A stretch of DNA of 64,000 nucleotides from Parcubacteria group bacterium LiPW_41 (lineage in GTDB: Bacteria > Patescibacteriota > Minisyncoccia > UBA6257 > GWB1-50-10), in the NCBI GenBank assembly GCA_007375535.1, contig VMEM01000001.1, positions 39,462-103,461 of the forward strand, written 5' to 3'. The notes beneath the pieces are model-generated. The model had not been told where the DNA came from, did no database searches, and was given only the letters and a program-made list of their open reading frames with translations. This document shows, one piece after another, positions 5,998 through 56,051 of this stretch. How positions within the stretch are numbered: position 1 is the first letter of the stretch; every line of letters begins with the position of its first letter. The translations under genes and the position numbers were made by a program.

Positions 5998-6249
5998 GCG
6001 CTCGGATACCCTTCGAGTCCTAAAATACAAATACAAAAAATCGCTCTTCGAGCGATATTTTGTATTTGTGCCCTCGTGAGGACTTTCCTCACCCGTCGCT
6101 TTCGCTCCTCCTTTGGAATCCTGGGTTCCTCGCTTCCGCTCATCCTCGACAAGCTCGGATTCGCTTTTCGCATTCGCGCGCTCGGATACCCTTCGAGTCC
6201 TAAAAATACAAATACAAAAAATCGCTCTTCGAGCGATATTTTGTATTTG
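5998..6249 (-). repeat. tRNA-Arg trailer element with 87/88-bp direct repeat (subfamily B)
   Basis: 5998-6084 repeats 6178-6265 with one A indel and includes the last 16 nt of the tRNA; anti-T-arm at 6192-6201. Confidence 0.9.
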
Positions 6250-6321
6250 TGCCCTCGTGAGGACTCGAACCTCAATTACGAGATCCGCAATCTCGCGTCC
6301 TATCCATTGAACGACGAGGGC
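6250..6321 (-). tRNA. tRNA-Arg(GCG)
   Basis: Cloverleaf; anticodon arm CGAGA-TT-GCG-GA-TCTCG; GGTTCGAGTCC T-arm. Confidence 0.93.
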
Positions 6322-6342
6322 GTAACATACACTTGTATGTTG

Positions 6343-6413
6343 TGCGGGCAAGGAGAATCGAACTCCTGTCTCAACCTTGGCAAGGTCGTGTTCTACCACT
6401 AAACCATGCCCGC
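6343..6413 (-). tRNA. tRNA-Gly(GCC)
   Basis: Cloverleaf; CGACC-TT-GCC-AA-GGTTG. Confidence 0.95.
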
Positions 6414-6458
6414 AAAACTATTTCTATTTAACACTAGAATACAAAAAAAATCCAGTTT

Positions 6459-6620
6459 TTATTGGGTAGGAGGTGGGCCGTACGGACCACGAACCGATGG
6501 TGGCCCAACTGGCCCCTTAAATGTCGTTTTTGGCTCCTCTGTTTTTTTAAAAACTGATGAAAAAATAAATAAAAGTATTATGCAAATACAAACAATAATC
6601 AAAAAAATAATTTTCTTCAT
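6459..6620 (-). CDS. Small membrane-anchored hypothetical protein (53 aa)
   Basis: MKKIIF + hydrophobic helix + Pro/Gly-rich tail; lies directly after the upstream gene. Confidence 0.5.
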   Translation of the reverse strand: MKKIIFLIIVCICIILLFIFSSVFKKTEEPKTTFKGPVGPPSVRGPYGPPPTQ

Positions 6621-6624
6621 ACAC

Positions 6625-7107
6625 TTAAAAACCAATAAAGTCTGCGAGAATACTCCCTGCAGTTTCTTCGTGTTCAATTTCAGGAAGATATTCCGCAAGA
6701 TATGGGCGAACTGACTTTAGTGTTATAACATCGATAGGGATATGAATATGTGGTTTTGTGTTTCCTCTCTGATGAATCACCAATTCATGGAGTTGGTTCA
6801 TACGCTCTCGAACAGAAAATGCAATAAGTTTTTCATATGGATATATTTTCTTTCCGATCCAAAGTCCTTGTTTATCCAAACGAAATTCATAAATAATAGG
6901 ACGTCGACGAGAAAAAGAAAAAAGTAAACCAGTTGCAGTAAGAATAAAAACAGCAAATAAAAAGTTTTTTTGCCACAAAGAAACAACAAAGAAGACGATT
7001 GCGACGAGACTGATGATAACATACCATCCAATTTCCTTTTCGCGATGTTCGTGTTCAGCGGCGCGCCACAACAATTCTTTTCGTTCTACTTTTTGTACTG
7101 GCTCCAT
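6625..7107 (-). CDS. Conserved hypothetical membrane protein (2 TM + soluble domain)
   Basis: Two hydrophobic segments; -10 box 9 nt before ATG. Confidence 0.65.
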   Translation of the reverse strand: MEPVQKVERKELLWRAAEHEHREKEIGWYVIISLVAIVFFVVSLWQKNFLFAVFILTATGLLFSFSRRRPIIYEFRLDKQGLWIGKKIYPYEKLIAFSVRERMNQLHELVIHQRGNTKPHIHIPIDVITLKSVRPYLAEYLPEIEHEETAGSILADFIGF

Positions 7108-7156
7108 AATATATTTATTATAGTATAAACCGCACAGTAATGTGCGGTTTATTTTG

Positions 7157-7228
7157 AGGCCGCGATGAGAATCGAACTCATGTATAGAGGTTTTGCAGAC
7201 CTCTGCCTTACCACTTGGCTACGCGGCC
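7157..7228 (-). tRNA. tRNA-Cys(GCA)
   Basis: GAGGT-CT-GCA-AA-ACCTC; U73 discriminator; followed only by a simple terminator hairpin (~7126-7151). Confidence 0.95.
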
Positions 7229-7242
7229 ATTATTATACTTTT

Positions 7243-7551
7243 TTATTTCGAATCTTCAGACTTCTCTGGTTCTACAATTTCAAATTTCAAATATGGCATC
7301 GGCTTTATATTGAGCTTTTTTAGGAGTTTAAACCTAATATCACTCGCCGCTCTTGAAACTATTTTATATACCTCCAAACTCTTTTCATACGGAATGATAC
7401 CAAGCTTTACATTCGCATGCAATAAATCCTTTTCAACTTCAGTCTCCATTATTGTTACTAAGGCTCCCTCAAAATTAAAATCACGAGAAAACATTTTTCC
7501 CAATTCTTCCGTGATTAATGACGATAGTTTTAGATCTCTAAATGGCCGCAT
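7243..7551 (-). CDS. rbfA: Ribosome-binding factor A
   Basis: Directly downstream of infB; LVTI..EV..DL..A.V and P.LKF motifs. Confidence 0.85.
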   Translation of the reverse strand: MRPFRDLKLSSLITEELGKMFSRDFNFEGALVTIMETEVEKDLLHANVKLGIIPYEKSLEVYKIVSRAASDIRFKLLKKLNIKPMPYLKFEIVEPEKSEDSK

Positions 7552-7568
7552 ATTTTGAATTAAATAAA

Positions 7569-53944: not shown

Positions 53945-53968
53945 ATTTTCTTAATTATAAAATATTTT

Positions 53969-54541
53969 TTAAAACAGTTGTGCTGGTGGGGGAGTTGGCT
54001 CTACAAAATCATTAAACTCAAGTCTTGTCATTTGCGGTTTAAATTTTTCTGGAATCCAAAGATATTTTTGATCTTTCATTTGATCATATACCATCTTTGT
54101 TACTCGAACATCTTGAGTACAATAATCTTTTAGTTTTTGCATTTCTCCATTTCGATAAAAATCGATTGCATCAAGCCCGTGCGCGCTCTTTCCTACCCCA
54201 ACATTTGCTTCTGCGAGCACTCCCAATCCGATACGTCGTCCAAGACGCTTCTCAATCTCCTCAAGAATATCAACGTGTTGAATTGCTGCAATATTAAACG
54301 AGTAATATTTTTCAAGGACCGGAATATCAAACTTCTTACTATAAAACCCAATCAACATATATGCATTTTGAAAATACTTTCCCGCCTTATCAAACTCTGT
54401 CTCATCAAAACAATAATATGCATCCTCATTATAGGAGTAGAGCCCAATGACAGACGTTTCAAGTTTCTTTATATTTTCTTGACCACCAACATCGGCAAAT
54501 GTGTTTTTTGTCTCAATATCAAATACAATTTTATCTCTCAT
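53969..54541 (-). CDS. RNase H-like (YprB/DEDD) exonuclease-domain protein
   Basis: VFDIET; FDIPVL; YCTQDV. Confidence 0.85.
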   Translation of the reverse strand: MRDKIVFDIETKNTFADVGGQENIKKLETSVIGLYSYNEDAYYCFDETEFDKAGKYFQNAYMLIGFYSKKFDIPVLEKYYSFNIAAIQHVDILEEIEKRLGRRIGLGVLAEANVGVGKSAHGLDAIDFYRNGEMQKLKDYCTQDVRVTKMVYDQMKDQKYLWIPEKFKPQMTRLEFNDFVEPTPPPAQLF

Positions 54542-54567
54542 TTTGGTTATAAGTCCCCATTATACAG

Positions 54568-55062
54568 TTAGGTATACATGTCGGCAACATGTGAGGCGGC
54601 AAAGCTTTCTGGTTTTGTTTTAACCTCATAATTCGACGCCCGAATCATTCCGACAATCTCTTGAATTAAAACGTTCGTTGGACCGTTTACTCCAACATCT
54701 GCATGAATTTCAAATGTCCATTTTGGTATTGGAAATGTATGTTCTGTTTTTTCAATCTCCTTCAAAAGTGTTTCTGCGATTTCAAGTGACAACAAAACTT
54801 CTCGGATAATTCTATCTCGTAATGTATAAAATTTTCCCAACTCAGTTCTTCTCCAAAAATATCTTCCGCCATTACCCACACGGTGCACAACGATCGCTGT
54901 CACAAAATCCGCCATTTTATTGTGAAACCCCATTGAATCAGTTCCAATAATTATCTTATATTCTTTTCTAGTGTCCTCACGCATATATCTCAAAATCTCT
55001 CGTACTACTGACGAGATATCAAATTCAACACCTATTGAACTTCGAAATAATAATGGCGACAT
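54568..55062 (-). CDS. RNase H-like YkuK (DUF458) family protein
   Basis: IIGTDS; EIHADVG; KPESFAAS.VAD. Confidence 0.85.
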   Translation of the reverse strand: MSPLLFRSSIGVEFDISSVVREILRYMREDTRKEYKIIIGTDSMGFHNKMADFVTAIVVHRVGNGGRYFWRRTELGKFYTLRDRIIREVLLSLEIAETLLKEIEKTEHTFPIPKWTFEIHADVGVNGPTNVLIQEIVGMIRASNYEVKTKPESFAASHVADMYT

Positions 55063-55108
55063 AGTTCCAACCTAACCCTGAAGGCATAATATGTCAATTT
55101 TTCATTCA

Positions 55109-55163
55109 TAAATACATATTCCACACAGACTTAGGGATTTAGTCTGCGTGGAATATGTATTTA
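55109..55163. repeat. 23-bp inverted repeat (22/23) with a 9-nt loop
   Basis: TAAATACATATTCCACACAGACT / AGTCTGCGTGGAATATGTATTTA. Confidence 0.85.
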
Positions 55164-55249
55164 CTCATTTTTACGGTAGATAGAAAAAAATCTTGAGTTT
55201 TCTTTGACTCTAGTGTACAACCAATACAGAACATAAAAATGGAGGAAAA

Positions 55250-55609
55250 GTGAATTTTTTTGATAATGACGAAAACGAGGTGATATTAAAGACGGGAGAT
55301 TTTGTTGCTTTTTATTTCAAACCTGACGAATATCTTGCGGCAGCAATTCAAACCGCAGAGAAAAAGATGTTGAATTTTTTTGAAAATTCAAAAAAACAGG
55401 AATATTTCTTTTTTAATCTACCAATTTCACTTGAAGAAGGTAAAAGGGTAATTGAAAAGAGAATCGGATTTACACTTGATTCACTCGAAGGCGAGGAGAA
55501 AAAACACAAAGAAAACAATCTTGCGCAATTTGCTTATATATTCATCCCCGCAAAGAATAAAGGAAAAAATATTATCACCACCGTATTCAAAATTGGAAAC
55601 CCCGTATAA
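55250..55609 (+). CDS. Hypothetical protein (orphan cassette)
   Basis: GGAGG SD; terminator overlapping the stop codon. Confidence 0.55.
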   Translation: MNFFDNDENEVILKTGDFVAFYFKPDEYLAAAIQTAEKKMLNFFENSKKQEYFFFNLPISLEEGKRVIEKRIGFTLDSLEGEEKKHKENNLAQFAYIFIPAKNKGKNIITTVFKIGNPV

Positions 55610-55670
55610 TTCGGGGTTTTTTCTTGAGTTTTTTTAGATATCTGATATGCTTGTTGTAGAAGTTTTGGAA

Positions 55671-55743
55671 GGGCCAGTAGCTTAGTGGCTAAAGCACCGA
55701 GCTTATACCTCGGCGACCGAAGGTTCGAGTCCTTCCTGGCCCA
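55671..55743 (+). tRNA. tRNA-Ile(TAT)
   Basis: CCGAG-CT-TAT-AC-CTCGG; GGGCC acceptor; A73. Confidence 0.9.
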
Positions 55744-55769
55744 CAGAACGGGCATTACAAACAAAATAT

Positions 55770-55841
55770 GGGCGTTTAGCTTAGTGGTAGAGCGTCTCGT
55801 TTACACCGAGAAGGTCGGGGGTTCAATCCCCTCAACGCCCA
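55770..55841 (+). tRNA. tRNA-Val(TAC)
   Basis: TCTCG-TT-TAC-AC-CGAGA. Confidence 0.95.
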
Positions 55842-56051
55842 CACAATAAAACATCATATTTCTCAATATGATGTTTTTGTATGAGGGGATTGAACAAGAA
55901 GGGGTGTTGGGGAAACGTTTGTTTCCCCATGGAGGAAGTATTGAAACCGAGTGGTTTCAAAGCGCAGTCTCGCCCGCAAGACGAGCAGTGAAATTTCCCC
56001 TCAACGCCCACACAAAAACAAAAACATCCTTTTCTAGGATGTTTTTGTTTT
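55842..56051 (+). repeat. tRNA-Val(TAC) trailer element (subfamily A)
   Basis: 14-nt exact anti-T-arm 55882-55895; 55996-56015 is identical to 55827-55846; second hairpin extends to 56051. Confidence 0.92.

Follow-up and report, generated by a model that had tools for sequence, protein, structure and literature searches.

What is the structured segment that follows most tRNA genes of Parcubacteria group bacterium LiPW_41? We analyzed a 64,000-nt stretch of contig VMEM01000001.1 (GenBank assembly GCA_007375535.1, positions 39,462 to 103,461), called the window here, in which such segments trail one tRNA unit after another. The source genome (G000) has 747 kb in six contigs with 37% GC. ARAGORN found 13 tRNA genes in 9 units in the window, and 48 tRNA genes and a transfer-messenger RNA (tmRNA) gene genome-wide. 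An Rfam scan of the window at the gathering score returned only tRNAs. The trailing element is an insert of 100-230 bp in the middle of the T-loop, with an intact tRNA gene ahead of it and the old tRNA 3′ end (copied from base 57-59) and old trailer behind it. The results suggest mobile DNA spread across many bacterial groups rather than ordinary small RNAs. We tentatively read the elements as non-autonomous DNA of the Escherichia coli TLR/RtT type, which would fold as single-stranded DNA, pair its arm with the T-arm, enter at mid-T-loop, and depend on an enzyme supplied in trans.

On the tRNA strand, a leader hairpin, an arm antisense to the host T-arm (anti-T-arm), and a core lie behind seven of the nine window units. 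Five of the seven elements end in a copy of the tRNA 3′ end. An earlier sequence-only reading had described this four-part layout at the same places, and its spacing of 164-182 nt between gene end and copy is the period that we computed. The Leu-TAA and Ser-TGA elements retain only a 5-6 nt stub of the copy. The element is absent from the Cys and Ala-GGC units and from the four upstream members of tRNA pairs. The last absence, also noticed earlier, extends to the whole genome, where upstream members of tandem pairs are filled in 0/8 cases and terminal genes in 28/40. In total, 28 of the 48 tRNA genes and the tmRNA gene are filled; these counts were made by inspection, and the automatic table under-calls some loci (e.g., Val-TAC of the congener G001 and Asn of G000). 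Core profiles gave 31 matches behind tRNA or tmRNA genes at 29 loci and three elsewhere, all three with E above 0.3.

The G000 cores form at least five sequence clusters. Four were seen in the window: family A (Val-GAC, Ser-CGA, and Val-TAC), family B (Glu), family C (Ser-TGA), and family D (Arg-GCG and Leu-TAA). The window cores had been described as homologous between unrelated tRNAs. Cores do move between unrelated tRNAs, and the Ser-CGA core (16445-16530) is 97% identical to a core behind tRNA-Ala(TGC) on another contig, but the window contains four families and not one. Elements stand behind tRNA-Phe (G000 C2:15334-15618) and tRNA-Asn (C2:79194-79811), which carry introns of 212 and 545 nt near the anticodon. 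Behind tRNA-Tyr (C1:133999-134257), a single element encloses two nested family-B core ends, which suggests that the site was entered repeatedly. All three congeners have a small cluster of odd tRNA-like genes whose anticodon calls are atypical and which precede another tRNA-like hairpin (G000 C6:38651-38800, L097, and L102).

The anti-T-arm is matched to its own tRNA. Among 47 other tRNA 3′ ends, the number scoring at least as high as the own end was 0 for Glu, Val-GAC, Ser-CGA, and Val-TAC, 1 for Leu-TAA, 3 for Arg-GCG, and 10 for Ser-TGA. Loci from other genomes were collected by core motif alone, and family-A loci are, here and throughout, those among the matches listed. The sets were reduced to 96 family-A and 30 family-B loci by dropping duplicates, the tmRNA locus, and leaders above 100 nt, and the percentages over them include relatives that are not independent. 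At 93% of family-A loci, against 31% when permuted, the arm was complementary to T-loop base 59; the family-B values were 100% and 48%. For base 57, the values were 82% against 47% in family A and 77% against 61% in family B, and the arm also tracked bases 60-68. Because base 59 is unpaired in the tRNA, T-stem palindromy cannot produce the match there. Generic T-loop palindromy as the source of the arm was excluded by the base-59 tracking and the own-tRNA scores, in agreement with the earlier proposal. The arm residues facing bases 57-58 are either complementary to them or GA, and GA would give a tandem sheared pair.

The copy was present at 78/96 family-A and 28/30 family-B loci; in the motif-collected loci, it starts at tRNA base 57 in family B and at bases 57-60 in family A. 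Gene and copy differed by single bases at 36 positions, pooled from sets that may share a few loci and include kin that are not independent; the arm followed the gene at 31, the copy at 2, and neither at 3. Reverse transcription from mature tRNA is disfavored, as the copies follow the gene and show no CCA end where the gene lacks one (not counted). Most loci of the three motif-collected sets (34/42, 16/19, and 100/120) lay within 260 nt behind an ARAGORN gene, and the rest mostly followed a truncated tRNA, an intron-bearing tRNA, or an island-end remnant. Several elements stand behind a strongly altered tRNA 3′ remnant with a T-loop-like start (L152, L172, L185, L187, L225, L263, L015, L018, and L033), as if an island had entered the tRNA and displaced remnant and element together.

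The same build is present in about ten phyla. The search pattern was a T-arm with a downstream antisense arm in the GA form only, and neither core sequence nor the 3′-end copy was part of it. It gave at least 121 loci; among the matches listed, 110 were on ARAGORN genes and 77 had a downstream 3′-end copy. The groups among 80 titles of these loci included Bacteroidota, Verrucomicrobiota, Pseudomonadota, Bacillota, Gastranaerophilales, Gemmatimonadota, Spirochaetia, Campylobacterales, Poribacteria, and Patescibacteria. The 77 cross-phylum cores used below (again among the matches listed) were drawn from the at least 121 loci for their tRNA-like flanks, without regard to core sequence. Here the arm follows tRNA bases 49-51 as well, and 59/77 cores contain an internal mimic of the T-arm's 5′ half, which tracks bases 50-51. 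When folded, the strand can therefore re-create a T-arm duplex and let the core protrude from its loop. A terminator-like leader stands ahead of the arm at 51/96 family-A, 10/30 family-B, and 42/77 cross-phylum loci, and the arm is stronger where it does (p 0.018, 0.001, and 0.008 in three sets). RtT matched 9/20 proteobacterial loci scanned and 0/20 loci mostly of other groups. An assignment of the proteobacterial cores to TwoAYGGAY was wrong, and those cores are RtT. In viral contigs, a looser pattern found the 3′-end copy in only 3/76 tRNA-linked matches, and the family-A motif had no matches. The family-A query had no match in plasmids, and RtT appeared in one Salmonella record only of the phage collection.

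The layout itself is already known from E. coli. The tyrT/tyrV repeats have a hairpin core between an antisense arm and an 18-nt copy. At lysQ, lysV, and proK, a terminator also stands before the arm, so all four parts are present, and the arm differs among Tyr, Lys, and Pro. In the Rfam RtT consensus (RF00391), the 5′ arm is paired with the 3′ copy. The earlier statement that known analogues explain only the 3′-end copy was therefore wrong, as the tyrT repeats cover every part except the leader. Like the window elements, the TLR/RtT units lie directly 3′ of a tRNA, carry a 16-22 nt 3′-end copy and a host-tracking antisense arm, form tandem repeats, and show the GA variant opposite bases 57-58. 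The E. coli repeats end in a sequence identical to the final 18-19 bp of the gene ahead of them, which may be a tRNA or an rRNA gene. Unlike the TLR/RtT units at ten loci in K-12, the G000 elements comprise at least five core families at more than half of the tRNA genes and the tmRNA gene, and family B has a side hairpin that splits the arm. RF00391 had no match up to E 10 in window positions 5000-17500 or in G000, and profiles and a covariance model of the G000 cores had no match at four E. coli loci. The build is thus common to both and the sequence family is not. The sequence-only reading had not recognized a described family. This was not so for the layout, which is that of TLR/RtT; the G000 cores, found in no Rfam family, appear from sequence comparison to be new and non-homologous families.

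The accessible part of one report lists 22 TLRs at ten loci of E. coli K-12 with no known function (PMC8144298). The literature searched, which did not include the original TLR papers (these may note the inverted arm), contained no account of a host-T-arm antisense arm, these core families, their breadth, or TLR mobility. Weak matches to Rfam sX4 (E 0.0016 and 0.076) overlap Ser tRNAs far below the cut-off and were rejected. The E. coli rrfB trailer (L124) contains a 5S-linked TLR with the shared core motif and an end copy of at least 13 nt, in which an arm antisense to the 5S 3′ end is not evident.

On the tRNA-sense strand, the core has a conserved fold that is under selection. Family A had 91 cells in which both sides of a pair had changed, a value reached by 0/500 shuffles; the first helix is part of the search motif and the second is not. 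Family B showed compensatory change at 5/12 predicted pairs. The 77 cross-phylum cores contain 99 C-GNA-G triloops on the sense strand, with all four N represented, compared with 6 on the other strand and 13 in shuffles (maximum 24). GNRA loops numbered 35 against 21 in shuffles, and UUCG loops 0. According to the part of the source available, GNA and GNNA mini-hairpins are far stabler as DNA than as RNA (PMC13037366). A hammerhead or group I ribozyme core was set aside; the cores measure 49-155 nt and match nothing in Rfam. Cores and copies are interrupted at varied places by a palindrome of about 20 bp, like a second, smaller mobile hairpin (L032, L190, L220, L223, L225, and L113).

The elements turn over among close relatives. 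The earlier reading had proposed such a comparison, and it yielded both filled and empty loci and exchanged core families. Between G000 and its two congeners used for locus-by-locus comparison, G001 and G002, the same tRNA is filled in one genome and empty in another at Cys, Trp, Thr-TGT, Gln-CTG, Arg-TCT, and Leu-TAG. In the order G000/G001/G002, the core family is B/B/A at Asp, A/B/B at Val-TAC, D/C/C at Arg-GCG, and B/D/C at Tyr. The empty allele runs on into the post-copy segment of the filled allele at Thr-TGT (scores 41, 34 vs. 8, 5), Leu-TAG (19, 23 vs. 10, 7), and Trp (15, 13 vs. 10, 8). Three core pairs are 97-98% identical across unrelated tRNAs, and their T-loops are identical in 3/3 against a baseline of 0.18 of all pairs. 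Family A was found in 26/41 genomes searched, with 1 to 19 copies each, and 29/33 checked matches in relatives lie behind a tRNA. The E. coli lysQ/lysV unit is full-length in only 3244/5426 genomes. A distinct tandem repeat, about 45 nt long and with the final bases of tRNA-Pro at its end, sits directly behind tRNA-Pro and in front of the element (L111, L115, and L082; tRNA-Pro of G001 and G002).

No enzyme is linked to the elements. Clustering of 495 neighbor open reading frames gave no recurring enzyme family. Pfam profiles run on 56 of 76 candidate neighbor frames of the cross-phylum loci revealed no linked enzyme, with one recombinase fragment among the 56. No IS110/IS1111 recombinase was present among the examined neighbors; G000 was not searched with an IS110 profile. 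The G000 enzyme genes comprise one Xer-like tyrosine recombinase, one Y1 transposase, and three small GIY-YIG genes. Their flanks contain no such cores, and the Xer-like recombinase is not beside an element. One Xer-like gene is present in 39/41 relatives. Family-A copies averaged 5.1 in 15 Y1-positive and 1.8 in 25 Y1-negative relatives (p 0.02, with kin not independent), and the element is carried by 13/25 Y1-negative relatives. Contigs of four DNA runs, which are uninformative data, showed no clean joint across the element. The accessible part of a mobilome study describes raised coverage at tyrT/rttR and attributes RNA-gene signals to RNA/DNA hybrids and not to circles (10.1101/2024.07.17.603846). 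A long perfect palindrome, unrelated to the tRNA cores, lies directly after the single Y1 (RAYT-like) gene of G000 (C1:10286-10984). In G002 (L094), a GIY-YIG-like open frame, recognized by eye, follows a duplicated tRNA-Ser 5′ end between tRNA-Arg(CCT) and tRNA-Ser(CGA), which are adjacent in G000 and G001.

Several known mobile systems share parts of this build. Islands and prophages integrated at tRNA T-loops likewise have an attL/attR duplication that begins in the T-loop, and the former trailer ends up behind the copy. Unlike them, our elements have neither integrase nor cargo, measure 100-230 bp, carry an inverted target-matched arm, and use any tRNA or tmRNA. IS200/IS605 ends, PATEs, and REP/REPIN sequences are likewise non-autonomous hairpin DNA with mini-hairpins on one strand, and IS608 chooses its target by base pairing. 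Those systems use guides of 4-5 nt and are not known to make a long target duplication, whereas our elements have a 16-22 bp duplication and no linked Y1 gene. Integron attC sites resemble the elements as folded single strands with unpaired features and complementary ends around a variable core. They have an R-box consensus, IntI, and gene cassettes; our elements have none of these, and their ends are T-loop derived. The bridge/seek RNA of IS110/IS1111 also places a variable, target-matched segment between conserved structured segments, a likeness clearest in family B. In contrast, our elements have no transposase nearby and a 16-22 bp duplication, and both of their guide pieces pair with the same strand. 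Miniature inverted-repeat transposable elements have element-specific terminal inverted repeats common to all copies, whereas the inverted ends here change with the host tRNA.

We propose the following mechanism for folded DNA moved in trans, which we regard as quite possible, if not yet probable. The sense strand would become single-stranded in a transcription bubble or on either replication strand, and the element would fold as DNA. The arm would then pair with the T-arm of the tRNA gene across the junction, as a splint or guide. An enzyme of the host or of another element, possibly of the HUH/Y1 or Xer/integrase type or a structure-specific nuclease, would carry out a single strand exchange in the T-loop. 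Template switching within the long hairpin may then adapt the remainder of the arm to the new target. The leader hairpin would act as a terminator and shield the pre-tRNA from its own antisense arm, which may be why the upstream members of tRNA pairs stay empty. In favor of this mechanism are the preference of the arm for the gene, the excess of DNA-type triloops on the sense strand, the compensatory change in family A, the continuation of empty alleles into the post-copy segment, the exchange of core families at one tRNA, the near-identical cores at unrelated tRNAs with identical T-loops, the incomplete presence of the lysQ/lysV unit in E. coli, the empty upstream pair members, and the stronger arm behind a terminator-like leader. 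A broader claim is that TLR/RtT and the Patescibacteria families belong to one bacteria-wide class of protein-less mobile DNA moved by an enzyme in trans, with a target site set by an antisense arm of 10-20 nt in the folded single strand and rewritten from every new target; it would be a DNA-guided insertion system that retargets itself. We consider this claim doubtful at present.

Several observations weigh against this mechanism. No enzyme, circle, or new insertion was seen in these sequence analyses. The Y1 transposase was found in only 16/41 relatives, and in none of the family-A-rich G023, G027, and G013. IS200/IS605 elements are lagging-strand-biased, and the G000 elements show no replichore bias (filled 15 vs. 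13, empty 6 vs. 6). GNRA loops, too, are enriched in family A (117 vs. 37, a count that takes in one loop lying inside the search motif) and family B (32 vs. 12), which argues against a clean DNA verdict. Precise loss between direct repeats would account for the filled and empty pairs as well as gain does, and trailers could be aligned at only three loci. The T-loop match of similar core pairs fades below 95% identity (3/7 at 90%). The preference of the arm for the gene over the copy would also result from mere decay of the copy. In E. coli, RttR and RrB are produced as RNAs, according to the accessible part of PMC8144298.

A second reading is enzyme-free turnover. The filled loci may be old, vertically inherited scars, with cores swapped by ectopic gene conversion via the near-universal T-loop homologies at both ends, arms kept matched by quasi-palindrome template switching, and loci lost by slippage between direct repeats. 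The youngest core pairs do join identical T-loops, and the Thr-CGT and Leu-GAG arms share the same mismatch. Tandem duplication is frequent, with at least two copies at 13/77 cross-phylum loci, and the neighborhood searches revealed no linked enzyme. Such turnover does not account for the filling of empty loci at tmRNA and in about ten phyla, for the convergence of unrelated cores on one build, or for the compensatory change in the hairpins; we find it rather unlikely. An RNA-level device, in which the arm of a read-through precursor invades the T-arm until the 3′ copy is transcribed, or which yields a small RNA with a tRNA-like 3′ end like RttR and RrB, also seems unlikely. It agrees with the arm matching the gene and with the predicted RNA folds of 10 units, in which, for the most part, the arm is bound to the T-arm of the tRNA and the downstream copy to the tRNA 5′ strand. 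When 10 elements were folded alone, an arm-copy closing helix was predicted in most. The rrn TLRs of E. coli are transcribed by read-through and then processed (PMC8144298, accessible part), and RtT has a covarying helix that frames a tandem GA (PMC8250186 and PMC7657543, in the parts available). The units are nevertheless dispensable and polymorphic, a terminator-like leader often stands before the arm, DNA-type triloops dominate the cross-phylum set while UUCG is absent, and the same tRNA tolerates any core family or none.

The elements may also be minimal att cassettes or decoys of tRNA-targeting tyrosine integrases, recombined as a folded strand like folded phage attP or attC. Here the arm, paired to the internal mimic of bases 50-56 and to the copy, would rebuild a double-stranded T-arm. 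The mimic in most cross-phylum cores, the near-universal Xer-like gene of the relatives, and the elements behind island-end remnants are consistent with this, and the T-loop is a known integrase sublocation in the accessible part of 10.1101/2020.11.02.365908. The junction, however, lies at mid-loop (57-59) and not at the loop edges. A loop-edge junction is the expectation for a 7-bp integrase overlap. No integrase was found next to the loci examined, and the scarcity of copies in viral contigs and the lack of a plasmid match for the family-A query make this reading quite improbable. Of the three options in the sequence-only reading, the non-autonomous element and the folded single-stranded site fit best when combined, as in the mechanism that we favor, and the RNA switch fits less well.

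Table 1. Host tRNA genes and trailer elements in the window (host genes from ARAGORN).
Feature	Position	Strand	Parts and remarks
tRNA-Arg(GCG)	6249..6321	-	host gene
Arg-GCG element, family D	5998..6248	-	leader hairpin 6248-6202, anti-T-arm 6201-6192, core 6191-6085, 3′-end copy 6084-6068
Arg-GCG element, beyond copy	to 5998	-	tandem repeat of hairpin, anti-arm, and start of core
tRNA-Cys(GCA)	7156..7228	-	empty allele, terminator only; family B fills the G002 counterpart
tRNA-Glu(TTC)	9285..9357	-	host gene
Glu element, family B	9058..9284	-	leader hairpin, anti-acceptor piece 9252-9247, side hairpin 9246-9225, anti-T-arm 9221-9211
Glu element, rest	9210-9058	-	core 9210-9126, copy 9125-9108, decayed second unit to 9058
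tRNA-Leu(TAA)	10040..10123	+	host gene
Leu-TAA element, family D	10124..10346	+	hairpin 10124-10169, anti-T-arm 10170-10179, core 10180-10273, 6-nt copy stub, terminator 10317-10346
tRNA-Ser(TGA)	11064..11151	+	host gene
Ser-TGA element, family C	11152..11334	+	hairpin 11152-11198, anti-T-arm 11199-11209, core 11210-11327, copy stub
tRNA-Ala(GGC)	14782..14853	-	empty in G000, G001, and G002
tRNA-Val(GAC)	15755..15829	-	host gene
Val-GAC element, family A	15573..15754	-	hairpin 15754-15697, anti-T-arm 15696-15682, core 15681-15594, copy 15593-15573; G001 empty
tRNA-Ser(CGA)	16301..16388	+	host gene
Ser-CGA element, family A	16389..16584	+	hairpin 16389-16430, anti-T-arm 16431-16444, core 16445-16530, copy 16531-16552, second hairpin 16557-16584
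tRNA-Val(TAC)	55770..55842	+	host gene
Val-TAC element, family A	55843..56051	+	hairpin 55843-55881, anti-T-arm 55882-55895, core 55896-55995, copy 55996-56011, second hairpin 56014-56051; family B at this locus in G001 and G002

Some protein genes of the window also touch tRNA genes. The last codons of an HNH endonuclease gene (9572-10075, plus strand) overlap the 5′ part of tRNA-Leu(TAA). Three related proteins of 220-230 aa with a helix-turn-helix-like N-terminal start are encoded at 14844-15530 of the window (minus strand) and at C4:34716-35414 and C1:138360-139025 of G000. Their genes end in or at the start of the tRNA genes Ala-GGC, Gln-TTG, and Trp, all three without a trailer element. 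Pfam gave no match for the window copy.

The E. coli TLRs carry small-RNA annotations, and since 1978 neither a function nor an origin has been assigned to them. If they form a branch of a widespread class of folded-DNA elements with a target-matched arm, the question could be tested in E. coli K-12, whose copies are polymorphic, and an enzyme directed to its target by a pairing arm would represent a new type of programmable insertion. For annotation, the 3′-end copies mimic the attR sites of islands, and the units occupy most of the tRNA trailers in streamlined genomes, which otherwise lose non-coding DNA.

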